The position numbers were made by a program, and so were the translations under genes. The notes under the pieces were generated by a model, which did not search any database, had not been told where the DNA came from, and saw only the letters and a list, made by a program, of their open reading frames with translations. DNA of 38,819 nucleotides from a phage, in sequence record PX655591.1; one strand, given 5' to 3'. The number at the start of each line of letters is the position of its first letter. Within the stretch, counting starts at the first letter, position 1. Positions 598 through 38,094 of the stretch are shown here, piece by piece.

Positions 598-821
598 GTA
601 CCACATCGAAACGACAGTGAGTACCAACACTGAAACGGGATAGCACGGCGGCGACAGCCAACGCGAATGCTCTTTAACAATTTGGATAAACTCTTAATGT
701 GCGCCGATAGCGACTAACTACAGGGTCTTTGAGTCTACCGCGAGACGGGCTTGACTTGAGCGACTGAAGGCCCTGACTGATAGTCACTAAAATACATAAA
801 CAACTTTGAGAGGATATAACT

Positions 822-1331
822 ATGGAACGTAACGCTAAAGCATACTATGAGCTGCTGGCCGCAACCGTTGAAGCATTTAACGAGCGCATTCAGTACGACG
901 AAATAGCTGAAGGTGATGACTACCGTGATGCGCTGCATGAAGTCGTAGACGGTAATGTTCCGCACTATTACCACGAGATTTTCACGGTGATGGCTGCTGA
1001 TGGTATTGACCACGAGTTTGAGGACTCTGGGCTGATGCCTGATACCAAGGACGTAACGCGTATACTACAAGCTCGCATCTATGAGGCGCTATATAACGAT
1101 GTATCTAATAGCCGTGATGTGGTATGGTTTGAGGCTGAAGAGGAAGACGAAAGGGCTGAATATCGGGTAGTTGACACTAGAACAGGCGAGATAATTGAGG
1201 CAGCTGTATCACTTTACGAGGCTATTGCATGTGCAAAAGAACTCTATGAGGAAGGTTTTCACATGCAGGTCGAGGACATCAACGATAACGTAGTGTTTGA
1301 CCCTGCGGATGCTGAGGAGGACTGCGAGTGA
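822..1331 (+). CDS. Ocr-like DNA-mimic anti-restriction protein (gene 0.3-like) with C-terminal extension, 169 aa
   Basis: Translation has [43 protein letters not shown], closely matching T7 Ocr as recalled; acidic; RBS GAGAGGA upstream; first gene after early promoters. Confidence 0.85.
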
Positions 1332-1486
1332 TGGTAACTTATGGCCTCTGCCAGTACCACGTCACCACCGCCAGGCTTATGGTCAAGACTGGGCGGTTAA
1401 ACCACGATGAGACTATGCGTCTCCTGAAGGTGGTCTACAAGCGCCGCAAACGTATTCACGACAGCTTGCACGCTGAGGACAAGTAA
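1331..1486 (+). CDS. Small early ORF, 51 aa ([11 protein letters not shown]...), overlapping the Ocr stop (TGATG)
   Basis: Hand translation; translationally coupled; no recognised homolog. Confidence 0.35.
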   Translation: MVTYGLCQYHVTTARLMVKTGRLNHDETMRLLKVVYKRRKRIHDSLHAEDK

Positions 1487-1488
1487 AC

Positions 1489-1614
1489 ATGTACAAGATA
1501 ACTTATAGCAGTGAACAGGCGTTCTACGATGGGTGCTACGAAATGATGAAGCGCGGGGCTTGCTACGTGGCTGATCACCATAGCCTGACCATAACGCTAA
1601 CAGGCGGATACTGA
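1489..1614 (+). CDS. Small early ORF, 41 aa (MYKITYSSEQAFYDGCYEMMKRGACYV...)
   Basis: Hand translation; begins 2 nt after the preceding stop; no recognised homolog. Confidence 0.3.
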   Translation: MYKITYSSEQAFYDGCYEMMKRGACYVADHHSLTITLTGGY

Positions 1615-2391: not shown

Positions 2392-5073
2392 ATGGGCGTC
2401 ATCTCTATTGACAAACACGACTTCTCTGATGTGTCGAACGCCATTGAGCCGTTTAACCTGCTGGCTGACCACTACGGGCAAGACCTTGCAGTCAAACAGC
2501 TTCAGCTTGAGCATGAGGCATACACTGAAGGCGAGCGACGTTTCATCAAGAACCTTGAGCGCCAGACCGAGCGCGGGGAACTAGCAGACAATCAGGTCGC
2601 CAAGCCTCTTATGCAGACTCTGGTTCCTAAGATTGCGCAAGCCGTCAAGGAGTGGCATGAAGGTCCAGACGGGAAGCTGTCAACCTCTCGTCCGAGCGTA
2701 GCGTTCACCATGTTGAGTACTGAAGAGAAGGCCGTAAAGGACCGCTCTTTGCGTATCTCCTGTGAGTCTGCTGCAGTTATCATACTGAAGGTCATCCTCT
2801 CCAAGCTGGTCAAGCCTGAAGGGATACCGATTACACCGATGGCCTCCGCGATAGGTCGCACACTTGAGGATGAAATCCGATTCGGTCGAATTCGTGACAA
2901 GGAGAAGGAGCATTTCAAGAAGGCGATAGCTGATAACCTGAACAAGAGAGTCGGGGCATCATACAAGAAGGCCTACATGCAAGCGGTTGAGACATCCATG
3001 TTGGAGCAAGGTCAACTGGAAGATGCGTGGGGGACTTGGAGTCCGACCGAGGCTGTCCACGTTGGTATCAAGATGCTTGAGATTGTCATCCAGTCAACAC
3101 AACTGGTCGAGCTTAAGCGTTACGGTGCTGGCAATGCAGCGGCTGACGTTGAGATGGTCCATCTGTCAGACTTCTGGGTCAAGAAGATGGCACAAAGAGG
3201 ATTCAGCCTTGCGGGTATCGCTCCAGTCTACCAGCCTTGCGTAGTTCCACCTAAGCCGTGGACTGGTGTCGTAGGCGGTGGGTACTGGGCCAAAGGTCGC
3301 AGACCACTACCACTGATTCGATTAGGGTCTAAGTCTGCGGTGGCGCGTTATGAAGATGTGTACATGCCTGAAGTCTATGACGCTGTGAATATCATCCAGA
3401 ATACGCCTTGGAAAGTGAACAAGAAGGTGCTGGACGTGGTGAACATGGTCGAGAAGCTGAACAACACGCCTATTGATGACATCCCGCAGATGGAACCACT
3501 GAAGCCTGAGGACTATGCGGGTGAGACCGAAGAGGAACTCAAGGCATGGAAGAAGACTGCTGCTGGTATCTACCGCCGAGAGAAGGCCCGGCAGTCACGC
3601 AGATTGTCACTGAGCTTTATCGTTAACCAAGCGAACAAGTTCTCTCAGTTCAAGGCCATCTGGTTCCCGTACAACATGGACTGGCGTGGTCGCGTCTACG
3701 CTGTGCCGATGTTCAACCCTCAGGGTAACGACATGCAAAAGGGTCTACTGACTCTGGCAGTCGGCAAGCCTATTGGTGCCGATGGCTTCAAATGGCTGAA
3801 GGTCCACGGTGCAAACTGCGCGGGTGTCGATAAAGTCACCTTCGAGGAGCGCATCAAGTGGGTGGAAGACAACCACGACAACATCATGGCTACTGCTAAA
3901 GCACCGATGGATAGCATTGAGTGGTGGGGCAAGTTAGACTCTCCGTTCTGCTTCCTTGCGTTCTGCTTCGAGTATGCTGGCGTAATGCACCACGGATTGT
4001 CTTACTCCTGCTCTCTACCGATAGCATTCGATGGGTCCTGCTCTGGGATTCAGCACTTCAGCGCTATGCTTCGTGACCACATCGGTGGACATGCAGTAAA
4101 CCTAACGCCATCCGGTAAGGTCCAAGACATCTACCGCATCGTGTCTGATCGCATTGAGGAGGAACTTAAAGTCCTGCTGGTTAACGGCACGGATAACGAG
4201 ATGGTCACTCACGAGGACAAGAAAACTGGTGAGATCACCGAACGTCTCAAGCTAGGGACACGAGAGCTGGCCCGGCAGTGGCTGACTTACGGTATGTCAC
4301 GTAAGGTCACTAAGCGTTCAGTAATGACTCTGGCCTACGGGTCGAAAGAGTACGGCTTCGCAGACCAAGTGTACGAGGACATCGTGATGCCAGCGATTGA
4401 CTCAGGGTCTGGCGCTATGTTCACCGAGCCAAGCCAAGCGTCTCGCTTCATGGCTAAGATGATTTGGGAAGCTGTGAGTGTGACCGTAGTTGCTGCTGTT
4501 GACGCGATGAAGTGGCTTCAAGGAGCTGCCAAGCTGCTGGCTGCTGAAGTGAAGGACAAGAAGACTGGAGAAATCCTGAAGCCTTGCCTCCCGGTACACT
4601 GGGTCACACCTGATGGGTTCCCGGTCTGGCAGGAATACCGCAAGAAGGATACCACCCGTCTGAACCTGATGTTCTTAGGGTCATTCAACCTTCAGCCTAC
4701 CGTCAACAGAGGCACGAAGAAAGAGCTGGACAAGCACAAGCAGGAGTCAGGCATTAGCCCGAACTTCGTCCACTCACAAGATGGTAGCCACCTCCGCAAG
4801 ACTGTAGTCCACACTCACCGCAAGTATGGAGTGATGTCATTCGCAGTGATTCATGATAGCTTCGGGACCATCCCTGCTGACGCTGAGTACCTGTTCCGTG
4901 GCGTCCGGGAGACGATGGTAGAGACCTACCGCGACAACGATGTGCTGCTGGACTTCTATGAGCAGTTTGAATGCCAGCTTCACGAGAGCCAGCGCGACAA
5001 GCTGCCAGAGCTTCCGAAGAAAGGTAAACTGAATATAGAAGACATATTGTCTTCCGACTTTGCATTCGCTTAA
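2392..5073 (+). CDS. Single-subunit DNA-directed RNA polymerase (T7 gene 1-like), 893 aa
   Basis: Extensive recalled identity to T7 RNAP (e.g. DGSCSGIQHFSAMLRD, ends SDFAFA). Confidence 0.97.
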   Translation: MGVISIDKHDFSDVSNAIEPFNLLADHYGQDLAVKQLQLEHEAYTEGERRFIKNLERQTERGELADNQVAKPLMQTLVPKIAQAVKEWHEGPDGKLSTSRPSVAFTMLSTEEKAVKDRSLRISCESAAVIILKVILSKLVKPEGIPITPMASAIGRTLEDEIRFGRIRDKEKEHFKKAIADNLNKRVGASYKKAYMQAVETSMLEQGQLEDAWGTWSPTEAVHVGIKMLEIVIQSTQLVELKRYGAGNAAADVEMVHLSDFWVKKMAQRGFSLAGIAPVYQPCVVPPKPWTGVVGGGYWAKGRRPLPLIRLGSKSAVARYEDVYMPEVYDAVNIIQNTPWKVNKKVLDVVNMVEKLNNTPIDDIPQMEPLKPEDYAGETEEELKAWKKTAAGIYRREKARQSRRLSLSFIVNQANKFSQFKAIWFPYNMDWRGRVYAVPMFNPQGNDMQKGLLTLAVGKPIGADGFKWLKVHGANCAGVDKVTFEERIKWVEDNHDNIMATAKAPMDSIEWWGKLDSPFCFLAFCFEYAGVMHHGLSYSCSLPIAFDGSCSGIQHFSAMLRDHIGGHAVNLTPSGKVQDIYRIVSDRIEEELKVLLVNGTDNEMVTHEDKKTGEITERLKLGTRELARQWLTYGMSRKVTKRSVMTLAYGSKEYGFADQVYEDIVMPAIDSGSGAMFTEPSQASRFMAKMIWEAVSVTVVAAVDAMKWLQGAAKLLAAEVKDKKTGEILKPCLPVHWVTPDGFPVWQEYRKKDTTRLNLMFLGSFNLQPTVNRGTKKELDKHKQESGISPNFVHSQDGSHLRKTVVHTHRKYGVMSFAVIHDSFGTIPADAEYLFRGVRETMVETYRDNDVLLDFYEQFECQLHESQRDKLPELPKKGKLNIEDILSSDFAFA

Positions 5074-5365: not shown

Positions 5366-5388
5366 CCTAAACTATCACTATAGGATTA
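5366..5388 (+). promoter_or_regulatory. Phage RNAP promoter (CCTAAACTATCACTATAGGATTA)
   Basis: Conserved 23-mer; position matches T7 phi1.1 promoters near the primary replication origin. Confidence 0.85.
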
Positions 5389-5423
5389 GACTCAAGGTCA
5401 TGACTCAAAGTCGTGGCCTTCAT
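5386..5423 (+). promoter_or_regulatory. RNase III-type processing hairpin (TAGACTCAAGGTCAT...GTGGCCTTCAT)
   Basis: Stem AAGGUCA/UGGCCUU with one G-U pair; same flanks recur at 12381 and 35433 with different loops. Confidence 0.6.
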
Positions 5424-5461
5424 GATTAACCCTAAATAAACACTACTGGAGATTTAACCAT

Positions 5462-8124: not shown

Positions 8125-8823
8125 ATGGCTAAAGAGCAACTGAAGACTTTCACCACTCCGGTAGCTGGTATCGTTGAGCCTTACGCATGGCTAAACAAAG
8201 CAGACACCAAGTTCAACGAGCGTGGTGAACACAAAGTCAACCTGACATTCGACCTGAGCAACCCGAAGGTCCGTAAGATGATTGATGTCTTGCAGAAGAT
8301 TCACGACGATGCGTATGCGAAAGCACTCGCAGACCACGAGAAGAACCCACCTCAGGTTCAGCGTGGCAAGAAGCCTATTGAACCACGAGAAGGCGACATG
8401 CCGTGGATTGAGAATGGTGATGGTACTGTTACCCTGAAGTTTAAATGCTTTGCGTCTTACCTTAAAGACGGCAAGTCCGAGCCTATCGTATTACGGTTCT
8501 ACGACACTGATGCCAAACTAATCCGTGACGTCCCGAATATTGGCGCTGGGTCTAAGCTGAAGGTCAAGTTTAAAGTCCTGCCGTTCAAGTGGAACGCTGC
8601 GACTGGTGCAAGCGTTAAGCTTCAGCTTGAGTCCTGCCTTCTGGTAGAACTGAAGGAGTGGAAAGGTGATGGTGCTGGTGGAGATGGTGGTTGGGGTGAT
8701 GATGAAGACCTCGGTACTGGCTACAAAGCGTCAACCGATGGCGACTTCGGGTCTGACGACTTCGGTGACGATGGTTCCGAAGGTTGTGACGACTCTGGCT
8801 CTGGTGGCGATTACGACTTCTAA
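8125..8823 (+). CDS. Single-stranded DNA-binding protein (gene 2.5-like), 232 aa
   Basis: Recalled identity to T7 gp2.5 (ASVKLQLES...); acidic Gly/Asp-rich C-terminal tail ending DYDF. Confidence 0.95.
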   Translation: MAKEQLKTFTTPVAGIVEPYAWLNKADTKFNERGEHKVNLTFDLSNPKVRKMIDVLQKIHDDAYAKALADHEKNPPQVQRGKKPIEPREGDMPWIENGDGTVTLKFKCFASYLKDGKSEPIVLRFYDTDAKLIRDVPNIGAGSKLKVKFKVLPFKWNAATGASVKLQLESCLLVELKEWKGDGAGGDGGWGDDEDLGTGYKASTDGDFGSDDFGDDGSEGCDDSGSGGDYDF

Positions 8824-9278
8824 TGGCCCAATGGTCTGCAAAACGGGGGCACTCTGTGGGTGCCTACCGCTCTGGACTTGAAGCCAAGAACCAGCAGTGG
8901 CTGGAACAGAACGGCGTCAAAGCGGAGTACGAAAGCCATTATATCAACTATGTGATTCCGGCTTCCGACCACAAGTATACACCAGACTTTATCCTTCCCA
9001 ACGGCATCATCGTGGAGACCAAAGGTATCTTCGATAGTGATGACCGTAAGAAGCACCTTCTGGTACGAGAGCAGCACCCAGAGTTAGACATCCGGTTCGT
9101 GTTCTCAAGTTCCCGCTCCAAGCTATACAAAGGGTCTCCTACCACGTATGGCGCATGGTGCGAAAAGAACGGCTATAAGTATGCCGATAAATTCATACCG
9201 GTTGAGTGGCTTCGAGAGGCGACTGTACGTCTGCCTTCAGGTATCCTCATCCCCAAGAAGAAAGGAGTTAAGTTATGA
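8823..9278 (+). CDS. Endonuclease I, Holliday junction resolvase (gene 3-like), 151 aa
   Basis: YTPDF...VETKG...DDRKKHLLVREQHPELDIRFVFSS matches recalled T7 endonuclease I. Confidence 0.95.
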   Translation: MAQWSAKRGHSVGAYRSGLEAKNQQWLEQNGVKAEYESHYINYVIPASDHKYTPDFILPNGIIVETKGIFDSDDRKKHLLVREQHPELDIRFVFSSSRSKLYKGSPTTYGAWCEKNGYKYADKFIPVEWLREATVRLPSGILIPKKKGVKL

Positions 9279-9745
9279 CTCAGAAATATAGACTTAAGGC
9301 TAATTTTAATGGGTGGCCAGCAGGTACTATCGTTACAAAATGTACGAAAGACCCGTACCCAACGCCGGGAGCGACTCTGGTAGAAACCTCCCAGCCTGGC
9401 ATCTACAAACACGGAGCGGAAGGTTATGACACTCAGCCTGACGGTATGTGGGGAGCGTGGGTTGTAACTAATCAGCTTGAGGAAATTGTAGAGGATAAAC
9501 CTCAAGTCCTTCCAGCTTCGAGCGTACCGCCTGTGACTGTGAAGCGTGAAGTCCTGACCATCGACAAGATTGGTGTGGGCCAGACGTTCATCGTACATGG
9601 CCAGCCTGACGAAGTGTACGTGAAGATTAGCAACTCTCACGTCTTCAACCATAAGCGTCTCCAGATGCACACCACGGACGCACAACGCTTCACCCAGCAC
9701 CTGAATCTGGTGGTCGTAGAATTGGTGGTGTACAATGGTAAGTAA
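9275..9745 (+). CDS. Hypothetical protein, 156 aa, inserted between endonuclease I and lysozyme
   Basis: RBS AAAGGAG; ATGA overlap with gene 3 stop; no recognisable motif. Confidence 0.6.
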   Translation: MTQKYRLKANFNGWPAGTIVTKCTKDPYPTPGATLVETSQPGIYKHGAEGYDTQPDGMWGAWVVTNQLEEIVEDKPQVLPASSVPPVTVKREVLTIDKIGVGQTFIVHGQPDEVYVKISNSHVFNHKRLQMHTTDAQRFTQHLNLVVVELVVYNGK

Positions 9746-10193
9746 GGTACAGTTCAACCCACGGTCCCGGACTGACGCTATCTTCGTCCACTGTTCGGCT
9801 ACCAAGCCAGAGATGGACATAGGGGTAGAGACCATCCGTATGTGGCACAAGCAGCAAGGCTGGCTGGATGTAGGCTACCACTTTATCATCAAGCGCGATG
9901 GCACTGTGGAAGAGGGGCGCCCGGTCAATGTCGTAGGGTCACATGTTAAGGACTGGAACTCACGGTCTGTAGGCGTCTGCCTTGTAGGTGGAATCAACGC
10001 TAAGGGTCAGTTTGAAGCTAACTTCACTCCAGCCCAGATGAACTCCCTGCGCAACAAGCTGGCTGACCTGAAGTCCCTGTATCCTCAGGCAGAAATCAAA
10101 GCACATCATGACGTAGCACCAAAGGCGTGTCCAAGTTTCGACTTACAGCGCTGGATGTCTACCAACGAACTGGTCACTTCCGACCACGGTTAA
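9735..10193 (+). CDS. N-acetylmuramoyl-L-alanine amidase / T7 lysozyme (gene 3.5-like), 152 aa
   Basis: TDAIFVHCSATKP...GWLDVGYHFIIKRDGTVEEGR...AHHDVAPKACPSFDL...NELVTSD matches recalled T7 lysozyme. Confidence 0.95.
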   Translation: MVSKVQFNPRSRTDAIFVHCSATKPEMDIGVETIRMWHKQQGWLDVGYHFIIKRDGTVEEGRPVNVVGSHVKDWNSRSVGVCLVGGINAKGQFEANFTPAQMNSLRNKLADLKSLYPQAEIKAHHDVAPKACPSFDLQRWMSTNELVTSDHG

Positions 10194-12212: not shown

Positions 12213-12377
12213 TTGTTAAGAAAACTTAAAGCCCGCTACCACATGTTCATGTACAAATGGTGGAGCGATGAAGCAACCTGCCTGTCGAACATTCTGGGAG
12301 ACCAAAGGTTCGAATCTAAGGCATGGAAGAAGGCTAACCGTAAGTTCATGTACCACTTCTTGCGTACAGACTTCTAG
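12213..12377 (+). CDS. Hypothetical small protein (gene 4.3/4.5 position), about 54 aa; start uncertain (TTG 12213 or ATG 12243)
   Basis: AAGGAGG RBS at about 12202-12208; within track ORF 12180-12377. Confidence 0.35.
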   Translation: MLRKLKARYHMFMYKWWSDEATCLSNILGDQRFESKAWKKANRKFMYHFLRTDF

Positions 12378-12380
12378 GTC

Positions 12381-12416
12381 TAGACTCAAGGTCATTCACA
12401 TCGAGTGGCCTTTATT
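12381..12416 (+). promoter_or_regulatory. RNase III-type processing hairpin (TAGACTCAAGGTCATTCACATCGAGTGGCCTTTAT)
   Basis: Same conserved flanks and stem as the 5386 and 35433 sites; intergenic before DNA polymerase. Confidence 0.6.
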
Positions 12417-12441
12417 ATTATTAGACTAAACGGAGGAAAAC

Positions 12442-14454: not shown

Positions 14455-15052
14455 TAACATCATGGTGCACATTAAATCTGGTGAACTCGGTGAACTCCTA
14501 ATGGGACAATACCGAGCCAAGCCATAGGGAGGATGTATGAGAGGCAAGAAGTTAATTCTTGAGGCCACTGAGACTGGCTGCATAATCCCTACGTCACATA
14601 AATTGAATCAGGATGGATACTTCCGAAAGAGGACTAACGGTGTCCTTGAGATGTATCATAGAACTGTATGGATTAAAGCTAATGGTCCAATACCTGACGG
14701 TTTCGAAGTAGACCACAAGTGTCGTAATAGAGCTTGTTGCAACGTCGAACATCTACAAGTATTAGACCGGGACTCACACTTAGTCAAGACCAACAAAGAG
14801 CGATACGCTGCTAGGAAGCTAGAAGCACGAGACTACTGGGTAGAGACTGGGTGTACTGGAACGAAGTTAGCCGAAGTGTTCAATGTGTCGTTCTCAGCCG
14901 CCTGTGGGTGGATTAGAGAGTGGAAGGCGTAGAGACTATCCGAAAGGAGTAGGGCCGTGGGTGAGATTCCCACGTAACCCGAAGCGCCAGACAGTCACCT
15001 CAAAGACTGATGATATAGTCCGACACTTCCAGTAATGGGAGAATACAGAAAG
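14455..15052 (+). mobile_element. Group I intron (about 598 nt) in the DNA polymerase gene, carrying an HNH endonuclease ORF
   Basis: Exon 1 ends in U that can pair with G of intron GUGCAC (14465-14470); AGACUAU (14933-14939) pairs with AUAGUC (15015-15020) as P7; G at 15052; downstream exon restores DNAP C-terminus in frame. Confidence 0.8.
14537..14932 (+). CDS. Intron-encoded HNH homing endonuclease, 131 aa
   Basis: HNH motif GPIPDGFEVDHKCRNRACCNVEHLQV; RBS GGGAGGA; ORF stops 1 nt before the P7 core element. Confidence 0.85.
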   Translation: MRGKKLILEATETGCIIPTSHKLNQDGYFRKRTNGVLEMYHRTVWIKANGPIPDGFEVDHKCRNRACCNVEHLQVLDRDSHLVKTNKERYAARKLEARDYWVETGCTGTKLAEVFNVSFSAACGWIREWKA

Positions 15053-25978: not shown

Positions 25979-28261
25979 ATGGCTAGTAATATTGAATCAG
26001 CTCTGGCTAATCGGACTATGGGTCGTGGCAGAGCGCCGGGTAAAACTATCGCCGTCAACTATCAAGCAGCCAACGTTCAGGCTCCGACTGGTGACTCTGG
26101 TCTGGCTCGTGCGTTAACAAACTTCGTTGAGTCTGGTACTGGATTGTACAAGCAGTTCAAAGACGAGGAGAAGACCAGAGCTGACGAGCGGTCTAACGAG
26201 ATTATCCGTAAGCTGACACCTCAGCAAAGACGTGAGGCTATCCAGAACGGCACGTTGCTATATCATGATGACCCTTACGCTATGGAAGCACTTCGAGTCA
26301 AGACGGGCCGTAACGCTGCCTTTGCGGTGGATGACGAGATTAACGTTAAGATTCAGAACGGCGAGTTTCGTACACGTCAGGACATGGAAGAGTATCGCCA
26401 CCAGCGACTACAGGATGCCGCTAAGTCCTATGCTGAAGAGGCGGGTATTAACCCTACCGACGAGTTCTTCCAGCGCGGATTCAACGATAACATCACTGAC
26501 CGAAACATAGCTATCTACGGGTCCTTCAATAAGTATTTCAGCAAGCAGTCTGAAGAGACAGCAATGTTGAACACTCGTATTGAGTTGAACTCGTTCCTTA
26601 ACGATGGGGACCTGATGCGTTCGCCTGAGTCTGGAAAGACCTTCATGGCCTACCTTCGTGATGGACTGACGACTGCTGCTATACCTTCGGACCAGAGAGC
26701 ACGAGAGGTCATCGCCCAGACGGTCCGTGACGCAATCCAGAAGTCAGGAGGTTCAAACTTCCTACAGCAAGTCCGTGGCGAGCGTATCACCCTTAACGGT
26801 GTTGACGCTACCATCGAAGAGATTGTAGGACCTGACATCTTCAATGCTGCTATGGTTGAGGCCCAAGGTACTGAGTATAAACTGGTGGCTAAGTATCAGG
26901 AAGACTTGGCGTTAGGCGTTCAGTCTGCGATTCTTCAGGATGACCCAACCATTGGTCTTGCCCAGATTCAGAAACTCAAGGAGCAGAACAACCTGCTTCA
27001 GCCGGGTGAAGAACTCACGCCTCAGCGTCAGATGCTTATTAATGCCGAAGCCAGCTTACTGGAAGCGGTCAAGCGTAAGTCTGCTGAACAGGCGAAGGAG
27101 AACACTAAGTTAATCCAGACTCAGAACAAGCAACTGGTCATCGACCAAGTGTATCAGCGACGTCTGGCTGGGGACAACGTGTCCACCAACTATGAGGACC
27201 TTCCAGTCTCAGATGCTACAGGCGAGTTCAAGCGTTCTGACATGAACAACTATGCGTCTGCCAAGCTACAGCAGATTGACCAGATGGACATCCCTGAGGC
27301 TGCTAAAGATGCTCAGAAGGTGGCATTGTTAAGAGCGGATACTAACAACGGTCCGTTCCGTAATGCCTTCCAGACGCTGACTCAGGACGCTGCTGGCGAG
27401 TGGCAAGCTGCGGTCATCCGTGGACAGTACGACCCAGACAAGATGAAACGCTTCGAGTCTCTTCGTCGTGCCTACACTCAGGACCCTTCAAGTTTTGCTG
27501 CTCTGTATCCTGACCAAGCTCAGTTGTTCTCTACGTTCGACCAGATGGACAAGATGGGTCTTGACCCTCAGACGATGATTGAAGCTGATAAGCAAGCTGC
27601 AAGTCAAAGCCGTGAGATGCGAATGGAGTCAGACAAGGCGTGGCAGGAGTTGAAGAATGACTCCAAGAACACCCAGTTGTCTCGCCTCCCAACGTCTCTG
27701 GACTCAAGTGCTCGTAAGGTCTGGGACTCATGGTACTATCGTACAGGTAACGCTGACGCTGCGACTCAGCAGACTCAACGCTGGCTTAACGAGAACACCG
27801 TAACGTTCCAGTCTGAAGGTTCTGACGGTAAGTCAATCGGCATGGTATCCAAGCACCAGCTTATGGTCGGGGATAACCCTGAGTCGTGGCAGGTAGGTCG
27901 AGACATTATCGACACCGCCCGTAAGCAGATCATTAAGGCCAACCCTTGGGTAGTGAACTCTCAGTTGTCCGTTGTTGAACAGAACGGCTCTATCTTCCTC
28001 CAAGACGCTACAGGGACTATTCGTATTCTCTACGATAAAGAACTTGTAGGTAAACTCTACCGCGAACAACAGCAGAAGGCACAGGATGCCGCATATGCTC
28101 AGGCAGAACGTGACGCTAACAAGCGAGCGCGTATCGTCGGGACTAAAGCTGCTGGTGATAAACGTCGAGCTGACCGAGAGGCCAACATCGAGAAGCGCGG
28201 TGGGATGTACAATGACGTCTCACTGGAGGGTATCGCAAACGCACTAATCGGTAAGGAGTAA
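25979..28261 (+). CDS. Internal virion protein C (gene 15-like), 760 aa
   Basis: Size and position; RBS AGAGGAGG. Confidence 0.85.
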   Translation: MASNIESALANRTMGRGRAPGKTIAVNYQAANVQAPTGDSGLARALTNFVESGTGLYKQFKDEEKTRADERSNEIIRKLTPQQRREAIQNGTLLYHDDPYAMEALRVKTGRNAAFAVDDEINVKIQNGEFRTRQDMEEYRHQRLQDAAKSYAEEAGINPTDEFFQRGFNDNITDRNIAIYGSFNKYFSKQSEETAMLNTRIELNSFLNDGDLMRSPESGKTFMAYLRDGLTTAAIPSDQRAREVIAQTVRDAIQKSGGSNFLQQVRGERITLNGVDATIEEIVGPDIFNAAMVEAQGTEYKLVAKYQEDLALGVQSAILQDDPTIGLAQIQKLKEQNNLLQPGEELTPQRQMLINAEASLLEAVKRKSAEQAKENTKLIQTQNKQLVIDQVYQRRLAGDNVSTNYEDLPVSDATGEFKRSDMNNYASAKLQQIDQMDIPEAAKDAQKVALLRADTNNGPFRNAFQTLTQDAAGEWQAAVIRGQYDPDKMKRFESLRRAYTQDPSSFAALYPDQAQLFSTFDQMDKMGLDPQTMIEADKQAASQSREMRMESDKAWQELKNDSKNTQLSRLPTSLDSSARKVWDSWYYRTGNADAATQQTQRWLNENTVTFQSEGSDGKSIGMVSKHQLMVGDNPESWQVGRDIIDTARKQIIKANPWVVNSQLSVVEQNGSIFLQDATGTIRILYDKELVGKLYREQQQKAQDAAYAQAERDANKRARIVGTKAAGDKRRADREANIEKRGGMYNDVSLEGIANALIGKE

Positions 28262-28263
28262 AC

Positions 28264-28713
28264 ATGAAGAACGGGACAGCCAGTGAGAGACTGGCAGAAC
28301 TGTCAGTAGCTGAAGAGTCTGGCTGTATCCGATTCACAGGCCACTTAGACGGAGAAGGATATGGAAGGATAATGGTAGCTAGGGTTAAGTATATGGCACA
28401 TCGTCTCTCCTACTCCCTAAATAATGGGCCAATACCAGATGGCTATGTTGTTAGGCATAAATGTGATAATCCATCATGCATAAATCCTGAACACCTTGAA
28501 GTAGGAACGCAGGCTGACAACATTGCAGATAAGGTTTCCAGAGGCCGACAGGCAAGAGGGAGTGGAGCAGGCAGAGCTATACTGACAGAGGAATCTGTTA
28601 GGGAGATACTCTCCAGTCCATTAAAAGTATCTGAGCTTTCCACATTATACGGGGTAAGCGTCGTTTCCATACGAAATATATTGAGGAGAAAGACATGGCA
28701 ACACGTGGTGTAA
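28264..28713 (+). CDS. Free-standing HNH homing endonuclease with C-terminal helix-turn-helix-like tail, 149 aa
   Basis: GPIPDGYVVRHKCDNPSCINPEHLEV HNH motif; paralogous to intron ORF (shared ..GPIPDG..V.HKC.N..C.N.EHL); inserted between genes 15 and 16. Confidence 0.85.
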   Translation: MKNGTASERLAELSVAEESGCIRFTGHLDGEGYGRIMVARVKYMAHRLSYSLNNGPIPDGYVVRHKCDNPSCINPEHLEVGTQADNIADKVSRGRQARGSGAGRAILTEESVREILSSPLKVSELSTLYGVSVVSIRNILRRKTWQHVV

Positions 28714-31700
28714 GGAACGCAAATCCGGGCAATATCCGTAAGTCCAAAGACCAATGGGAAGGTGCTATAGGTGATGATGGTGAATTCGTTATCTTCGACA
28801 GCCCTGAATCCGGGGTCCGAGCATTAGCAAAAAACCTTCAAAGCTACGGTCGCCAAGGCTACGACTCAATCGAGAAGATTATCAACCGTTGGGCGCCTCC
28901 GAACGAGAACGACACTCAGTCCTACATCAACTCGGTTGTATCTGCGACTGGTATTCCAGCTACCCAGAGTCTCGACCTCTCTGACCCGGACACACTGTCT
29001 TCTCTGGCGCAAGCTATCGGCTACCACGAGACTGGTTCCCGGTATGACCCTGAGGTCTACAAGACTGGCGTCTCTCGTGCCTTAAGTGGTGCGGGAGGTA
29101 TAAGCCCAAAGACTCCACCAGTAAGCGCGAACGTATTTGACGCACTCACGGAAGGCCTCAAGGCTAAACCTAAAGTATCTCTGGGTGAGAATCTTCCGAC
29201 CGCTGCTGGTCTGAACATTGAGGGTCAAGCGCCTGAAGCTCCCAACGAATCGTTCGGTGAGATGTTCTATAAGGCTACTGGAGAGACCATGCAGGAACGA
29301 GAGGACCGCTCTACGTGGTTCGGTTTCGGTGCTGCTACAGAAGCTGAAGTGAAGAACTCTATGGTCGGCGTGGCTATCCGAGCTGGTCAGACTGAGGACT
29401 CACTTGATGTCATTGGAGATGTGTTCAACCCTACCAGATGGAACAACCATAAGTGGACTCGCGAGGAGCTGGATCAGATTCGTAACGCTGGGGTTCTGCC
29501 TCAGTATTATGGAGTCATTACTGGTGGGTCTCCTCAGAACCTGACCGAGCTTATTAACTTAGCGCTTGAGAACCAGAAGTTGGACCAAGAGAAGGCCAAG
29601 GCTGGGACTGGTGCTCAGTTAGCTGCGGGTGTGATTGGCGCTGGTGTGGACCCTCTGACCTACGTTCCTATTGCTGGGCAGGTAGGTAAAGGTGGGAAGC
29701 TAGTCAACAAGATGTTCACTGTGGCTGCTCAGTCTGGTGCTCTGGCTGGGGCATCCGAGATTGCTCGAACCTCAGTTGCTGGTGGTGACGCTCATGTGGC
29801 TGAGGCAATTATGGGTGGTGCTCTCTTCGGTGGGGGAATGACAGCTATCGGGGACGCTATCGGCAAGGCCTTAGGCAAGTCAACCAACGAGTTCGCTGGG
29901 CCAGCCACACGTCTGGAAGCCCGTGAGACTGCACGTAATGTTGATGGTCAGGACCTGTCTCGTATGCCAATCCGTGAAGGAGAGGAGACTTTTAGTCATC
30001 AAGGCGTTAAGTTCGCTGATGTTCCGAATGAGCCGGGTAGTGTACGACTGGAGGATGGTTCAATCCTGATTGGTGAGAACCCTCTGAACCCTAAGACACG
30101 TCAAGTTTTTGACGAAGTGATTGAGCCTGAACGTGCCGCTGCTGGTGTGAACCTTGGTGGTCTGACTGAGATTGGCTTGAAGCTGCTTCGGTCAGAGAAC
30201 CCTGAGATTCGTGGAGTAGCTGCTGACTTAGTGCGTTCACCGACTGGTATGCAGTCTGGGTCCTCAGGTAAAATCGGGACCACTGCGTCAGACGTATTCG
30301 AGAGACTTCGTGCTGTGGACCATCGGTTCTACAACGACATCGACGATGCGGTTACTGAGGCACTAAAGGACCCGTACTTCCAGACAGCATTCTGGCGAGA
30401 CTCTGGCGCATTCCGTCAGGACATCTACCAGCGTGTGTCTATGGCTATCGAGGATGGTAGCGGAAACCTGAAGGCTGAACTGACTCCGGGAGAACTGAAA
30501 GTCTATGACCTGCTGAAGAACCAGTTTGACGCCAAGCGTGAGATGATGGAGAACCCAGCTATGTTTGGTCGGCCAGACGCTCAGTCTATCTTTCCGGGTA
30601 GCCGCTTCAAGGGAACCTACGTCCCTCATGTGTATAGCAAACAGATGAAGGAGCTGTACATCAAGGAGCTTGGGAGTCCAGAGGCGTTGCAGGAGGCCAT
30701 CAAGAAGTCATGGTTGACCAGCTATGCGTCTCGACCTGAAGTCAAGAAACGCGTGGACGAGGCACTCTTAGAGGCTGACCCTACGTTGACTCCAGAGGGA
30801 CTTGCTGCTGCGGTCGATAAGTACGCCAACGATAAGGCTTACGGTATCTCTCACACCGAGCAGTTCGAACGTTCATCCGTAATGGAAGAGAACATCAACG
30901 GTCTGGTTGGTCTGGAGAACAACAGCTTCCTTGAGGCTCGTAACCTGTTCGATAGTGATATGTCAATCGTCCTGCCTAACGGTCAGACCTTCAGTGTCAA
31001 CAACCTGCGTGAGTGGGACATGGATAAGATTGTCCCTGCTTATAACCGTCGAGTTAATGGTGACATTGCTATCATGGCTGGTACAGGAAAGACCACGAAG
31101 GAAATGAAGGACTTGGTTGAGACCATGATGAACAAGGCTGGGGATGACGGTAAGTTGAAAGGTGAGGTATCTACCTTACGTGACACCTTGAAGATTCTCA
31201 CTGGTCGTGCTCGACGTGATGGTGCTGATGATGCAGCCTTCGCTACCGTGATGCGTACAATGACAGACCTATCGTTCTTCGCTAAGAATGCCTACATGGG
31301 TGTTCAGAACTTAACGGAGATTGGTGGTATGCTGGCTCGCGGCAATGTTCGTGCGCTGCTGCATGGAGTCCCGATGTTCCGTGACCTAGCCTTCCGTAAC
31401 AAGAAGGTAGGGGCCTCAGAGATTAAGGACCTGCACAACGTTATCTTCGGTAAGGAACTGGATGACTCAATCCGTCCGTCAAAGCAGGATGTTATAGACC
31501 GACTACGATCTTACAGCTCCCTGAGTAAACCTACGGCTACGGCTCTAGGCTCTGCCAAGTATTACACTGGTGAACTTGCAGTACGCTCTCCGTTCACTAA
31601 AGTCCTCAACGGTACGACCAACTACCTGTTAGATGCTGGACGTCAAGGCTTCTTGTCTGACATCGTAGAGCATAGCCTGACTGGTAGTAAGCGTAAGTTC

Positions 31701-32591
31701 GATGACCGCTGGCTGAAGACCGCTGGTATCTCTGACGAGCAGTGGAAGGGCATTAAGTCCCTAATCCGTGAGTCAGTGACTCGTGGTCCAGACGGGAAGT
31801 ACACCATCAAGGATAAGAAGGCGTTCAGTCAGGACCCAAGGGCTATGGACCTGTGGCGTATGGGCGACACCATCGCTGATGAAACGTTACTCCGTCCTCA
31901 TAAGCTGTCCAACATGGACGCCAAGGCTTATGGTCCTCTCGCTAAGACTGTCCTTCAGTTTAAGAACTTCGTCATCAAGTCCATCAATGGGCGAACCATG
32001 CGAACCTTCTATAACGCCACGAAGAACAACCGAGCGATGGACGCTGCCCTGTCCACTGTGATGTCTATGGGTCTTGCTGGTATCTACTACATGGCTCAGG
32101 CTCACGTCAAGGCTTACGCTATGCAGGACGGTCGAGACAGAGATTACCTCAAGCAAGCTCTGGACCCAACGATGATTGGCTATGCGGCCCTGTCCCGTAG
32201 TTCACATCTTGGTGGGCCACTTGGGGTAGCTAACATTCTTGGTGGCATCGCTGGATACGAGGACACTAAGATGCTTCGTTCGTCTATCCTCCCGCGTTCA
32301 CCTACAGAGAAGCCTGAACGTGCCATAGCAGATGGTGCGGCTACAAGTGACCCTGTGATGAATGTCGTCGGTAACTTCTTGGAGCAGGTCCCGGCTTTCG
32401 GCTATGCTGCTAACGTTGGTGCCTCGGCGTACAACTTGGCTGGCTACCTCAAGGCTGATACTCGTGTCAATGAGCGAGACTACATGACAGGGATGTATAA
32501 CACGTTCCGAGAACTTGTCCCGAACGACCCGATTACCCAGAAGCTGCTACTTGGGACGTTTGAGGAGCAAGGTATCCACATAAAGGACTAA
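28695..32591 (+). CDS. Internal virion protein D (gene 16-like), 1298 aa, with non-T7 N-terminal domain
   Basis: Middle and C-terminal regions match recalled T7 gp16 (ARETARN...DLVRSPTGMQSG...GTYVPHVY...AYGISH); N-terminal about 120 aa (RNANPGNIR...) lacks the T7 SLT motif. Confidence 0.9.
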   Translation: MATRGVRNANPGNIRKSKDQWEGAIGDDGEFVIFDSPESGVRALAKNLQSYGRQGYDSIEKIINRWAPPNENDTQSYINSVVSATGIPATQSLDLSDPDTLSSLAQAIGYHETGSRYDPEVYKTGVSRALSGAGGISPKTPPVSANVFDALTEGLKAKPKVSLGENLPTAAGLNIEGQAPEAPNESFGEMFYKATGETMQEREDRSTWFGFGAATEAEVKNSMVGVAIRAGQTEDSLDVIGDVFNPTRWNNHKWTREELDQIRNAGVLPQYYGVITGGSPQNLTELINLALENQKLDQEKAKAGTGAQLAAGVIGAGVDPLTYVPIAGQVGKGGKLVNKMFTVAAQSGALAGASEIARTSVAGGDAHVAEAIMGGALFGGGMTAIGDAIGKALGKSTNEFAGPATRLEARETARNVDGQDLSRMPIREGEETFSHQGVKFADVPNEPGSVRLEDGSILIGENPLNPKTRQVFDEVIEPERAAAGVNLGGLTEIGLKLLRSENPEIRGVAADLVRSPTGMQSGSSGKIGTTASDVFERLRAVDHRFYNDIDDAVTEALKDPYFQTAFWRDSGAFRQDIYQRVSMAIEDGSGNLKAELTPGELKVYDLLKNQFDAKREMMENPAMFGRPDAQSIFPGSRFKGTYVPHVYSKQMKELYIKELGSPEALQEAIKKSWLTSYASRPEVKKRVDEALLEADPTLTPEGLAAAVDKYANDKAYGISHTEQFERSSVMEENINGLVGLENNSFLEARNLFDSDMSIVLPNGQTFSVNNLREWDMDKIVPAYNRRVNGDIAIMAGTGKTTKEMKDLVETMMNKAGDDGKLKGEVSTLRDTLKILTGRARRDGADDAAFATVMRTMTDLSFFAKNAYMGVQNLTEIGGMLARGNVRALLHGVPMFRDLAFRNKKVGASEIKDLHNVIFGKELDDSIRPSKQDVIDRLRSYSSLSKPTATALGSAKYYTGELAVRSPFTKVLNGTTNYLLDAGRQGFLSDIVEHSLTGSKRKFDDRWLKTAGISDEQWKGIKSLIRESVTRGPDGKYTIKDKKAFSQDPRAMDLWRMGDTIADETLLRPHKLSNMDAKAYGPLAKTVLQFKNFVIKSINGRTMRTFYNATKNNRAMDAALSTVMSMGLAGIYYMAQAHVKAYAMQDGRDRDYLKQALDPTMIGYAALSRSSHLGGPLGVANILGGIAGYEDTKMLRSSILPRSPTEKPERAIADGAATSDPVMNVVGNFLEQVPAFGYAANVGASAYNLAGYLKADTRVNERDYMTGMYNTFRELVPNDPITQKLLLGTFEEQGIHIKD

Positions 32592-35168: not shown

Positions 35169-35428
35169 CGCAGATGGACTTAGAGAAGTTCCTCTTGATG
35201 CTGGATACTGAACGTGCTCGACTCATGCTGCAAGACCTGCGGGATGACACAAAGCGTTCGCCTCAGCTTTACAACGCCATTGAGAAGCTGCTGGCTCGTC
35301 ACAACTTTGTGTTAAGCAAGGTGTCTGTTGACGAGAAGACGCTGGCTGATATGGAGGCCCTGAGCGCAGAGTACGATAAGGTGCTCTCCGCTACGGAGGA
35401 TAATGACACTGGATATGGAGTACAGTAA
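35165..35428 (+). CDS. Terminase small subunit (gene 18-like), 87 aa
   Basis: MLDT...RSPQLYNAIEKLLARH matches recalled T7 gp18. Confidence 0.9.
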   Translation: MTQMDLEKFLLMLDTERARLMLQDLRDDTKRSPQLYNAIEKLLARHNFVLSKVSVDEKTLADMEALSAEYDKVLSATEDNDTGYGVQ

Positions 35429-35432
35429 GCGT

Positions 35433-35468
35433 TAGACTCAAGGTCATTACTATATGTAGTGGCCTTTA
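35433..35468 (+). promoter_or_regulatory. RNase III-type processing hairpin (TAGACTCAAGGTCATTACTATATGTAGTGGCCTTTAT)
   Basis: Third copy of the conserved hairpin; position matches T7 R18.5. Confidence 0.6.
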
Positions 35469-35529
35469 TGGTTAACACTAACCAGTGGAGGAGACTCTAC
35501 GTGAAATCTGATAAACCGGGAGGGCAACT

Positions 35530-35973
35530 ATGCTCGAATTTTTAAAGAGAGCGGCTCCGTGGTTACTTGCAGCAGTGATGTTTGCTGGTGGCTACCACAC
35601 CGCTAACAATAAGTGGGAGGCTAAGGTCAATGAAGAATACACCTCGAACCTTAAGGCATCGGAGGATACAAGGCTTGCTGTCCAAGCTGAAGTCAACAAA
35701 GTGTCCAAACGGTTTCAGGACGAAATATCCTCGCTGGAAGGCAGCACTGATAGGATTATTGCTGACCTTCAGTCTGACAATAAGCGGTTGCGCATCCGAG
35801 TCAAACCAACGAGTGGAACCACGCAAAGTGACGGTCGATGCGTCATTGATGGTTACGCCGAACTTGACGAACGAGATGTTAAACGTCTTATCGCCATCGG
35901 ACTGAAAGGGGACAAATGGATTAAGGCACTTCAAGACACTGTGAGAGCCTTACAGCAAGATAAGGAGAAATAA
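35530..35973 (+). CDS. Rz-like i-spanin (gene 18.5-like), 147 aa
   Basis: MLEFL...EGSTDRIIADLQSDNKRLRIRVK...ALQDT matches recalled T7 gp18.5. Confidence 0.9.
   Translation: MLEFLKRAAPWLLAAVMFAGGYHTANNKWEAKVNEEYTSNLKASEDTRLAVQAEVNKVSKRFQDEISSLEGSTDRIIADLQSDNKRLRIRVKPTSGTTQSDGRCVIDGYAELDERDVKRLIAIGLKGDKWIKALQDTVRALQQDKEK
35630..35905 (+). CDS. Rz1-like o-spanin lipoprotein (gene 18.7-like) embedded in the +1 frame of gene 18.5, 91 aa
   Basis: PRWKAALIGLLLTFSLTISGCASES lipobox and LMVTPNLTNEMLNV match recalled T7 gp18.7; start taken at ATG 35630. Confidence 0.8.
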   Translation: MKNTPRTLRHRRIQGLLSKLKSTKCPNGFRTKYPRWKAALIGLLLTFSLTISGCASESNQRVEPRKVTVDASLMVTPNLTNEMLNVLSPSD

Positions 35974-36359
35974 TGCTAACCGACTTTACGTACTCAGATG
36001 GGAAGTTGTTCAGGAAGGGACGCGAAGTCGGCTCAATGGACAACCACGGGTATCTACGGACTACGGTCAACTACCGTAAGTATCTCGTACACCGTCTAAT
36101 CTACAAGCTACACAACCCTGAGTTCGACCTTGAGTCAGACCTCGTGATTGACCACATCAATCGCGACCGAACAGACAACAGGATTGAAAATCTTCGGGCT
36201 GTGACTAAGGCTGAAAACAACAGGAACAGGGACCTACCGAGAGGCGTGTCTTATTGCAAACAGACCGGGAAGTGGAAGGCTATCCAACCTCGCTGGCTCG
36301 GTCGATTTGATACTGAACAGGAGGCCATAGATGCAGTTAGCGCCGCAAGAGAGGAATGA
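35973..36359 (+). CDS. Free-standing HNH endonuclease with AP2-like DNA-binding domain, 128 aa
   Basis: [31 protein letters not shown] motif; [30 protein letters not shown]2-like; inserted between 18.5 and 19. Confidence 0.8.
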
Positions 36360-38094
36360 GGCAGTAACCAATCGGATGAAAGAAGACTTCGTGTTCTTCT
36401 TATTTGTCCTCTGGAAAGCACTTAGCCTCCCAGTACCAACCAGATGCCAGATAGATATCGCCCGTAAGCTCTCCGCTGGGGACAACAGGCGCTTCATCCT
36501 ACAGGCGTTCCGTGGTATCGGGAAGTCCTTCATTACGTGTGCATTCGTTGTCTGGAAGCTATGGAACAACCCAGACTTGAAGTTCATGATTGTGTCGGCC
36601 TCAAAGGAACGAGCTGATGCTAACTCCACCTTCATCAAGCGAATCATCGACCTCATGCCTCAGCTTCAGGAACTCAAACCTAAGCAGGGACAGCGAGATG
36701 CGGTTATCAGCTTCGACGTTGGACCAGCCAAGCCAGACCACTCACCTTCGGTTAAGTCCGTTGGCATCACTGGCCAGTTGACTGGTAGTCGTGCTGACAT
36801 CCTGATTGCCGATGACGTGGAGGTTCCGAACAACTCAGCGACTCAGGCCGCACGAGACCGTCTGTCAGAGCTTGTGAAAGAGTTCGACGCTATCCTGAAG
36901 CCGGGAGGTACAATCATCTATCTGGGTACTCCTCAGACCGAGATGACCTTGTATCGTGAGCTGGAAGGTCGTGGATATACCACTACTATCTGGCCAGCCC
37001 GCTACCCACGCGATAAGAAGGACTGGCAGTCTTACGGCGACCGTCTGGCTCCTATGCTTCAGGCAGATCTTGAAGAGGACCCTGAGTCCTTCTACTGGCG
37101 TCCGACCGATGAAGTTCGATTCGATGATACGGACCTGAAGGAACGTGAGCTGTCCTATGCTAAAACTGGCTTCGCTCTACAGTTCATGCTTAACCCGAAC
37201 CTGAGTGATGCTGAGAAGTACCCTCTGAAGCTACGTGACCTTATCGTAGCAGACTTGGACCCAGCATCCAGCCCAATGGTCTACCAATGGTTGCCTAACC
37301 CTCAGAACAAGCGTGAGGACGTTCCTAACGTTGGACTTATGGGTGACTCATACCACACGTATCAGACTGTAGGTTCTGCCTTCAGTTCGTACACCCAGAA
37401 GATTCTGGTCATTGACCCTAGTGGTCGTGGTAAGGATGAAACTGGCTATGCTGTACTGTACCAGCTCAACGGCTACATCTTCGCTATGGAAGTTGGTGGT
37501 ATGCGTGGTGGTTATGAGGACTCTACGCTGGAAGCTCTGGCTAAGATTGGTCGTAAGTGGAAGGTCAACGAATACGTCATTGAGGGTAACTTCGGTGATG
37601 GTATGTACCTTGAGCTATTCAAGCCTGTAGCGGCCCGTATCCATCCTGCGGCTGTAACTGAAGTGAAGAGTAAGGGTCAGAAAGAACTACGAATCTGTGA
37701 CGTTCTGGAGCCTATCATGGGGTCTCACCGCCTTATCGTGAACGCTGCTGCTATCGTCCAAGACTATCAGACAGCCTCTGATAAGGATGGTGTTCGTAAC
37801 CCTATCTACTCTCTCTTCTACCAGATGACCCGTATCTCTCGTGAACGGGGAGCCTTGGCACACGATGACCGACTTGATGCTCTGGCTATCGGTGTACAGT
37901 TCTTCGTTGAGTCTATGGCTAAGGATGCCAACAAAGGCGAACGTGAAGTCACTGAGGAGTGGCTGGAGGAACAGATGGAGAACCCACGGAAAGGCTTCGA
38001 GTCCATCCACACTGAGTTCTGGGACAATGGGGTCCGGGTGACTCACGATACGGACTACGAGCTGGGACTCGGGTCGTACGTTACGTTCCACTAG
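36331..38094 (+). CDS. Terminase large subunit (gene 19-like), 587 aa
   Basis: Extensive recalled identity to T7 gp19 ([59 protein letters not shown]); RBS AGGAGG. Confidence 0.97.

Follow-up and report, generated by a model that had tools for sequence, protein, structure and literature searches.

I-HmuI of Bacillus phage SPO1 is a nicking enzyme. It is encoded by a group I intron, acts as a monomer with a single active site of the type DH...N...N, and ends in a helix-turn-helix. Proteins that have HNH as their N-terminal and AP2 as their C-terminal domain make up a recognized class of homing endonucleases that is present in phages, cyanobacteria and protists (PMC10448857, citing Magnani et al. 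2004). In phages, these genes (among them the "IPA-HNH" genes of ICP1 and other phages) are found sporadically and lie beside an essential gene, often terminase (PMC10448857). A packaging role has been assigned to terminase-adjacent HNH genes in HK97-like phages (cited in PMC10448857, PMC8861465); gp74 of HK97, an HNH protein encoded beside the terminase genes, is conserved in all relatives and is required for cos cleavage. HNH genes have also been described between the spanin gene (18.5) and the gene for the large terminase subunit, TerL (19). In the Yersinia fPS phages, the product of one such gene, Gp045, was called a homing endonuclease and was judged to be unusual among T7-like late genes (PMC5923468). 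In Hafnia phage Ca, ORF48 encodes an HNH protein at this same junction, with a BLASTP identity of 97% to the CR44b protein; genomes that had lost the endonuclease gene through a 397-bp deletion dominated small plaques, while complete genomes dominated large ones, a correlation for which the authors established no mechanism (PMC8861465).

The DNA analysed here, called the window, is a stretch of 38,819 nt from a phage (sequence record PX655591.1). It represents a Kayfunavirus of the T7 family, and its last 24.8 kb match coliphage K1F at ~93% identity across 79% of their length. At the spanin/terminase junction of this K1F-like phage lies what is, with a probability of about 80%, an intact, presumably active, free-standing HNH-AP2 homing endonuclease gene (Table 1). 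A previous reading of the sequence alone had placed here a 128-aa ORF that starts on the gene 18.5 stop (TAATG), overlaps the start of gene 19 by 29 nt, and contains an HNH motif of 28 residues. Each of these features is present: the spanin TAA (35971-35973) and the endonuclease ATG (35973-35975) share one A, the overlap has the length given, and the motif corresponds to residues 58-85. The TerL ATG, with AGGAGG in front of it, is the start annotated in every gene-carrying relative. Given its matches to Pfam HNH_3 and PHROG 99, the ORF is not a chance ORF.

Table 1. Positions of the endonuclease gene, its parts and its neighbors in the window
Feature	Position	Strand	Remarks
HNH-AP2 homing endonuclease gene (main reading), free-standing	35973..36359	+	128 aa, ATG start
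N-terminal beta-strand region, residues 1-36	35973..36080	+	equivalent to the I-HmuI N-terminal DNA-binding sheet; putative DNA-binding role, by analogy with I-HmuI
HNH_3 (beta-beta-alpha-metal) nuclease core, residues 37-84	36081..36224	+	D60-H61, N73, N82/N85
Shortened AP2-like domain, predicted DNA-binding, residues 89-127	36237..36353	+	three strands and a helix
Shine-Dalgarno AAGGAG of the endonuclease gene	35962..35967	+	5 nt 5' of the endonuclease ATG; sequence reading
Replacement Shine-Dalgarno AGGAGG of TerL	36319..36324	+	inside endonuclease codons Q116-E117-A118; 6 nt 5' of the TerL ATG
Endonuclease/TerL overlap	36331..36359	+	29 nt; last endonuclease codons are TerL codons 1-10, in different frames
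TerL 5' haplotype, codons 1-19	36331..36387	+	linked to the endonuclease gene; alignment and N-terminal translations
Inner-membrane spanin (gene 18.5), upstream neighbor	35530..35973	+	PHROG 1327 Rz-like spanin, E 2.3e-60
Terminase large subunit TerL (gene 19), downstream neighbor	36331..38094	+	Pfam Terminase-T7_RNaseH-like, E 6e-38; PHROG 38, E 1.4e-130
Two further HNH_3 ORFs in the genome	14537-14932; 28264-28713		Pfam; 28264-28713 lies between gp15 and gp16

The HNH assignment is firm. Residues 37-84 match the full HNH_3 profile (PF13392, positions 1-46) with 62.8 bits (E 2.2e-17), compared with a Pfam gathering cut-off of 24.8 bits, and PHROG 99 ("HNH endonuclease") covers residues 5-128 (E 1.6e-39). 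The AP2 segment that had also been proposed in the sequence-only reading does not reach the threshold when the single sequence is searched (PF00847, 18.9 bits, E 0.0019, cut-off 33.3 bits; residues 89-120 against positions 3-42 of the 54 in the profile), and at E<=1 no Pfam family other than HNH_3 and AP2 matches the ORF. It is recovered, however, with a family profile, in a structural model and in a fold search. The homologue collection holds 197 sequences at E<=1e-5, many of them with both PF13392 and PF00847, and 55 were aligned to build the profile. In this alignment, the C-terminal segment of the endonuclease lines up with the AP2 domains (PF00847) of the homologues, from which it differs by being ~7 residues short in the hairpin between strands 2 and 3. 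D60, H61, N69, N73 and N85 are invariant, N82 is nearly so, and A118, within the AP2 helix, is also invariant. The N-terminal two-thirds of the family profile match I-HmuI (1U3E; E 3.9e-10), with I-HmuI residues 25-113 aligned to profile positions 29-113, and its C-terminal positions 93-158 match the plant AP2 proteins WRI1 (E 3.3e-10), TEM1 (1.5e-6), ERF096 (2.9e-5) and AtERF1 (3e-4).

An AlphaFold2 model built from the alignment (pLDDT 94.5) has N-terminal strands at residues 5-8, 11-14, 17-19, 28-32 and 35-38, a beta-beta-alpha nuclease core (strands 58-61 and 74-77, helix 79-84), and an AP2 part that consists of a three-stranded antiparallel sheet (92-95, 100-104 and 108-112) and one helix (115-127). 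When this model is compared with the PDB by Foldseek, I-HmuI ranks first (E 2.9e-4, prob 1.00) and the WRI1 AP2-DNA complex 7wq5 ranks second (prob 1.00, rmsd 3.8 over 49 columns). Thus, the domain, profile, model and fold-search results together identify the protein as an HNH-AP2 endonuclease. I-HmuI is its best match among solved structures by both profile and fold, and the enzyme aligns with the I-HmuI motif DH...NLRWVT..N; unlike I-HmuI, it is free-standing and has an AP2 domain at its C-terminus. It differs from the other members of the HNH-AP2 family in its AP2 domain, which is shorter by those ~7 residues and sub-threshold in Pfam, and in the overlap of its gene with the terminase start, for which it provides the ribosome binding site (RBS). 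Between Kayfunavirus copies, pairwise dN/dS is 0.04-0.11, with dS up to 0.5; therefore, the protein is kept by selection and is no decaying remnant. None of the catalytic residues has been lost, and purifying selection acts on the gene.

This gene had been counted as a third, unrelated insertion of the homing-endonuclease type in the genome. Two more HNH_3 ORFs are indeed present (Table 1). The word "unrelated" needs qualification: all three proteins belong to Pfam HNH_3, although over the HNH core the one considered here shares only 24-33% identity with the others. Between those two, identity is 50%, and neither has a Pfam match to AP2.

The gene is an insertion that only a few of the close relatives carry. 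A 1.5-kb probe over the region matched 621 phage records, and the ORF was covered in only 8 of them; most K1F-like phages match this probe as two pieces, with a span that is 355 bp shorter. With a 221-bp probe over the K1F junction, the junction was found uninterrupted in 124 phage records, whereas DNA of the ORF at >=88% identity was present in only 7 (PhiNW-B1, CtuP_B1, two records of BDX03P1, phiYIO1-1, BUCT788 and P7124). K1F itself, the closest relative genome-wide, is without the endonuclease gene, and T7 has a gap of 21 nt and no gene between 18.5 and 19. Both the description of the ORF as inserted and the statement that T7 has no gene here, made in the sequence-only reading, are thus borne out. 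Between fixed anchors, the net difference between a carrier and an empty site is +355 bp. In alignments with empty sites, ~400 bp (roughly 35968-36372) stands in place of a native junction of ~48 bp. The left edge of the insertion is sharp, and the spanin, which ends in QQEKEVTH in phages without the gene, ends here in QQDKEK.

Orthologues that share 66-70% identity with the gene occupy this 18.5/19 junction in coliphage pO91 (annotated as "hypothetical protein"), in Yersinia phages such as fPS-7, fPS-9 and fPS-59 (Helsettvirus; Gp045) and in Morganella phage Lilpapawes (Minipunavirus; gp57). The 29-nt overlap with TerL is also annotated in fPS-59, Lilpapawes and pO91; in BUCT788, CtuP_B1 and YIO1-1 the stop codon comes earlier and the overlap is 26 nt. 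The phages with the 66-70% orthologues belong to different genera and have different hosts, and beyond ~codon 10 their terminase follows their own genus. In all, the gene lies at precisely this junction in four genera or lineages (two sub-lineages of Kayfunavirus, Helsettvirus and Minipunavirus). The fPS gene is present in every isolate sequenced, which taken by itself would speak against homing, but this is uninformative since the isolates are near-clonal. The junction orthologues in the Yersinia fPS phages and in phiYIO1-1 have already been annotated as homing endonucleases; the arrangement is therefore not new, and the window adds one more copy to an established class of selfish genes.

Other ORFs can occupy this position. 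A second HNH lineage, with a protein of 145 aa, is present at the junction in Zappy and in CR44b (where it is named "3.8A"). Like the gene in the window, it is a free-standing HNH gene (PHROG 99) between spanin and TerL that overlaps both neighbors and is followed by a TerL with an ATG start. It differs in that the protein is only 35% identical, over the HNH core only, the TerL overlap is 8 nt, and another TerL N-terminus is linked to it. The published BLASTP result assigns the HNH gene of Hafnia phage Ca to the second lineage as well. In Baskent and Bas105, the same junction contains an unrelated ORF of 56 aa. Since three unlike ORFs (the endonuclease, the second HNH lineage and the 56-aa ORF) fill one junction, the 18.5/19 junction is an insertion hot spot, which fits the clustering of homing endonuclease genes beside terminase genes (PMC10448857).

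The flanks of the gene may carry a record of exchange. Before the last spanin codons, K1F and the window are 93-98% identical; identity falls to 66-82% over 36338-36480 and then returns to 97%; the dip relative to HAO1-1 is over by ~36400, and overall the dips extend 60-150 nt downstream of the gene. In an alignment of 17 genomes, three haplotypes of TerL nt ~95-230 assort independently of the presence of the gene; HAO1-1, which is without the gene, shares the downstream haplotype of the window, and BUCT788 and YIO1-1 share that of Zappy. TerL codons 1-19, on the other hand, are perfectly linked with the presence of the gene across the 17 junctions. Such a pattern is compatible with repeated break repair that involves co-conversion tracts of variable length, and ordinary phage mosaicism could also produce it. 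It agrees with the statement that "nuclease genes occupy boundaries of genetic exchange" (PMC10448857). At the nucleotide level the gene is 92% identical to that of BUCT788 and 88% identical to that of P7124, with flanks of 93-97%. The signature of a very recent transfer, a gene much more alike than its flanks, is seen among the carriers only for PhiNW-B1 (98% versus 93-97%); in the others, gene and flanks have diverged to about the same degree.

The domains of the protein, its sporadic presence and its fixed site across lineages all support a homing endonuclease, the type of gene suggested in the sequence-only reading. In a mixed infection with a relative that is without the gene, the enzyme would bind, through its N-terminal sheet together with its AP2 domain, a site of ~15-25 bp that lies at the terminase gene's 5' end or just inside it. 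The single beta-beta-alpha-metal site would then nick or cut the DNA; nicking is plausible because I-HmuI is a nickase. Recombinational repair would copy the ~400-bp cassette, and with it more or less of the terminase sequence downstream, over the ~48-bp native junction, and the carrier genome would be protected, its own junction sequence having been replaced. The TerL gene probably contains or adjoins the cleavage target. Candidates for this target are the replaced ~48 bp, which holds the GC-rich GGCGCGTCAGGCGC, and the adjoining, highly conserved TerL codons 18-42; the sequence alone does not pinpoint a single site. In the literature searched, no demonstration of cleavage, of a target site or of a homing event was found for this lineage. 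A gene retained because it benefits the phage would equally well show purifying selection and an overlap with TerL.

Insertion of the gene goes along with a new translation start for terminase. Where the gene is absent, TerL begins at a TTG (GTG in T7) that overlaps the spanin stop and is served by an AAGGAGG in the last spanin codons. In the window, this AAGGAG element serves the endonuclease instead, and TerL begins at an ATG that is preceded by an AGGAGG within the conserved codons of the AP2 helix. GAGGAGG or GGGAGGG is present at the equivalent place 5' of the TerL ATG in pO91, fPS-59, fPS-53 and Lilpapawes. In the alignment of 17 junctions, all 8 of the 8 carriers examined have the TerL N-terminus MQL(A/T)PQERN..., with the ATG and with AGGAGG in endonuclease codons, whereas 8/8 phages without the gene have LSKDLVARQALMT(A/T)RMKAD, a TTG start and an RBS in the 3' end of the spanin gene. 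Across genera, only the first ~10 TerL codons accompany the gene, after which the sequence is genus-specific; evidently, the poorly conserved TerL N-terminus tolerates exchange. A faint likeness between the 5' end of the endonuclease gene (ATG CTA ACC GAC TTT) and that of TerL in phages without it (TTG AGT AAA GAC TTA) is judged to be chance, because the F-x-Y motif at the N-terminus is kept in distant homologues that have other neighbors.

The gene has no phage promoter of its own and is probably expressed from the late transcript initiated in front of gene 17. The phage promoter CTAAACTATCACTATAGGA is present in 12 copies in the window; the nearest one upstream is at 32582, before gene 17, and the scan of the window gave none between 32582 and 38184. 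Around the gene, scans for sigma-70 promoters and terminators returned matches at chance level only. Translational coupling at the TerL start finds no support in RNA structure: the region 36285-36375 folds no better than shuffled sequence (z = 0.04).

As a tentative proposal, with the odds against it, the gene may resist loss through its fusion to the terminase start: it has taken the RBS of TerL, gives in return a stronger AGGAGG and an ATG, and encodes the first ~10 residues. The second HNH lineage at this junction would be an independent case of the same logic, since in Hafnia phage Ca small plaques accompanied the loss of its 397-bp cassette. If the proposal is true, a deletion would cost the phage its packaging enzyme, the gene may raise terminase output, and a selfish element would be held in place by gene overlap and not by homing alone. 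A stronger version, in which the element is entrenched or partly domesticated and is kept since terminase depends on it rather than for homing, is unlikely. It draws on the 3' end of the gene, which holds the only RBS of TerL, its ATG (for TTG) and its first codons, such that simple loss would cripple packaging; on the start exchange seen in every carrier and in none of the gene-less phages of the alignment; on the conservation of the overlap over four lineages and the low dN/dS; and on the dominance of the deletion genomes of Hafnia phage Ca in small plaques (PMC8861465). However, entrenchment is compatible with active homing, and leaves both the spread to four lineages and the rarity among Kayfunaviruses unexplained. 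The Hafnia gene is only distantly similar (35% identity) and its authors gave no mechanism, and the RNA structure at the TerL start gives no sign of coupling.

Much less probable still is an accessory packaging nuclease like HK97 gp74, which would cut concatemers together with terminase. The gene does lie directly 5' of TerL, with which it is apparently co-transcribed, and the packaging role of terminase-adjacent HNH genes in HK97-like phages offers a precedent. Unlike gp74, however, it is sporadic, being missing from 124 close relatives, from K1F and from T7, phages that all use this terminase for packaging; gp18 and gp19 suffice for packaging of the T7 type. In addition, its HNH_3 and AP2 domains with an I-HmuI-like fold place it in another HNH family than gp74, and it has a predicted sequence-specific DNA-binding domain. 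A packaging factor of the gp74 kind is rejected on these two grounds, absence in most relatives and a different HNH family. Finally, a nuclease-dead remnant that acts only as a sequence-specific DNA binder, for example a regulator, is scarcely credible: elsewhere, DNA-binding domains of endonucleases, AP2 among them, have been recruited as regulators (PMC10448857), but here D60, H61, N73 and N82/N85 are intact and invariant or nearly so, and purifying selection acts on the whole ORF and not on the AP2 part alone.

As a homing endonuclease gene, the ORF is ordinary, and what follows from it in practice is modest. Its sole mildly interesting feature is that terminase has exchanged its translation start, and this exchange may entrench the gene. 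The insertion accounts for the difference between the window and K1F at the 18.5/19 junction. If characterized, this protein of 128 aa would provide a compact HNH enzyme, a nickase or nuclease, that is sequence-specific and has AP2 as its reader domain. In therapeutic cocktails of K1F-like phages, the gene could pass from one phage to another and take flanking markers along. For the Kayfunaviruses, the insertion marks the 5' end of the terminase gene as a recombination hot spot, a point to consider in phylogenies based on terminase, and the start swap neatly illustrates how a selfish gene can enter beside an essential gene, leave it unharmed and possibly become entrenched.

The spanin/terminase large-subunit junction, a hot spot at which different phages carry different insertions, is also occupied by ORFs that are not HNH genes: the 56-aa ORF of Baskent_phicoli_1, and the 56-aa and 140-aa ORFs of Bas105. 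In both phages the 56-aa ORF ends in PKEV(T/K)H*, a repeat of the C-terminal tail of the spanin (EKEVTH*). The 140-aa ORF belongs to PHROG 17779 (category "unknown function").

In some relatives (BUCT788, fPS-53 and Lilpapawes), a further HNH ORF separates gene 18 (small terminase) from gene 18.5 (spanin); in the window these two genes have just a spacer of ~100 nt with a putative RNase III site between them. The terminase large subunit of fPS-53 is annotated as two pieces with a 178-aa ORF in between. This ORF matches PHROG 2081, "HNH endonuclease" (E 3e-39), and from such an arrangement of sequence the terminase gene may be interrupted by an intron or an endonuclease gene, in addition to the endonuclease gene at the junction. 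The window itself contains two other HNH_3 ORFs, the second of which (28264-28713) is squeezed between the genes for internal virion proteins gp15 (25979-28261) and gp16 (28695-32591). Over the core, these two HNH_3 ORFs share 50% identity, and the junction ORF (35973-36359) shares only 24-33% with them.

Features of the window and of relatives' loci (each relative in its own coordinates)
Genome	Feature	Coordinates	Strand	Location	Assignment
Baskent_phicoli_1	56-aa ORF	1374-1544		spanin/terminase junction	no assigned function
Bas105	140-aa and 56-aa ORFs	1002-1424 and 1437-1607		spanin/terminase junction	
BUCT788	HNH ORF	1104-1505		between 18 and 18.5	Pfam HNH_3
fPS-53	HNH ORF	653-907		between 18 and 18.5	Pfam HNH_3
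Lilpapawes	HNH ORF	828-992		between 18 and 18.5	annotation only
Yersinia phage fPS-53	split TerL annotation and 178-aa ORF	2159-2653, 2874-3410, 3376-3684		terminase region	
Window	131-aa endonuclease ORF	14537-14932	+		HNH_3
Window	149-aa endonuclease ORF	28264-28713	+		HNH_3
Window	156-aa ORF	9275-9745	+		PHROG 16385 ("unknown function"), E 3e-96
Window	promoter copies	2295, 5361, 7084, 8057, 10423, 16689, 19510, 20547, 24868, 32582, 38184			consensus CTAAACTATCACTATAGGA
Window	weaker promoter copy	5426			consensus CTAAACTATCACTATAGGA
Window	~50-nt repeat, 3 copies	5386-5435, 12375-12420, 35427-35481		intergenic	
Window	tail-spike/fibre gene, 766 aa	32656-34956	+		

The 156-aa ORF, for which a Pfam search returned no match, lies between the genes for endonuclease I (8823-9278) and amidase/lysozyme (9735-10193), a position in which T7 is not known to have a gene.

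The consensus for the phage RNA polymerase promoter, CTAAACTATCACTATAGGA, occurs 12 times in the window, once in a weaker form; no copy falls anywhere from gene 17 through to the 3' end of gene 19. The ~50-nt intergenic repeats are probably RNase III hairpins. The third copy, 84% identical to the first, is positioned directly upstream of the spanin gene, at the place of the RNase III processing site R18.5 of T7.

K1F gene 17, which encodes the endosialidase, is 3195 nt long, versus a 766-aa product for the tail-spike/fibre gene of the window, and across the whole region only 79% of the query is matched by K1F. Judged from these sequence comparisons, the receptor-binding part of the tail spike/fibre probably differs from that of K1F, which would imply that the phage has a different capsule specificity.
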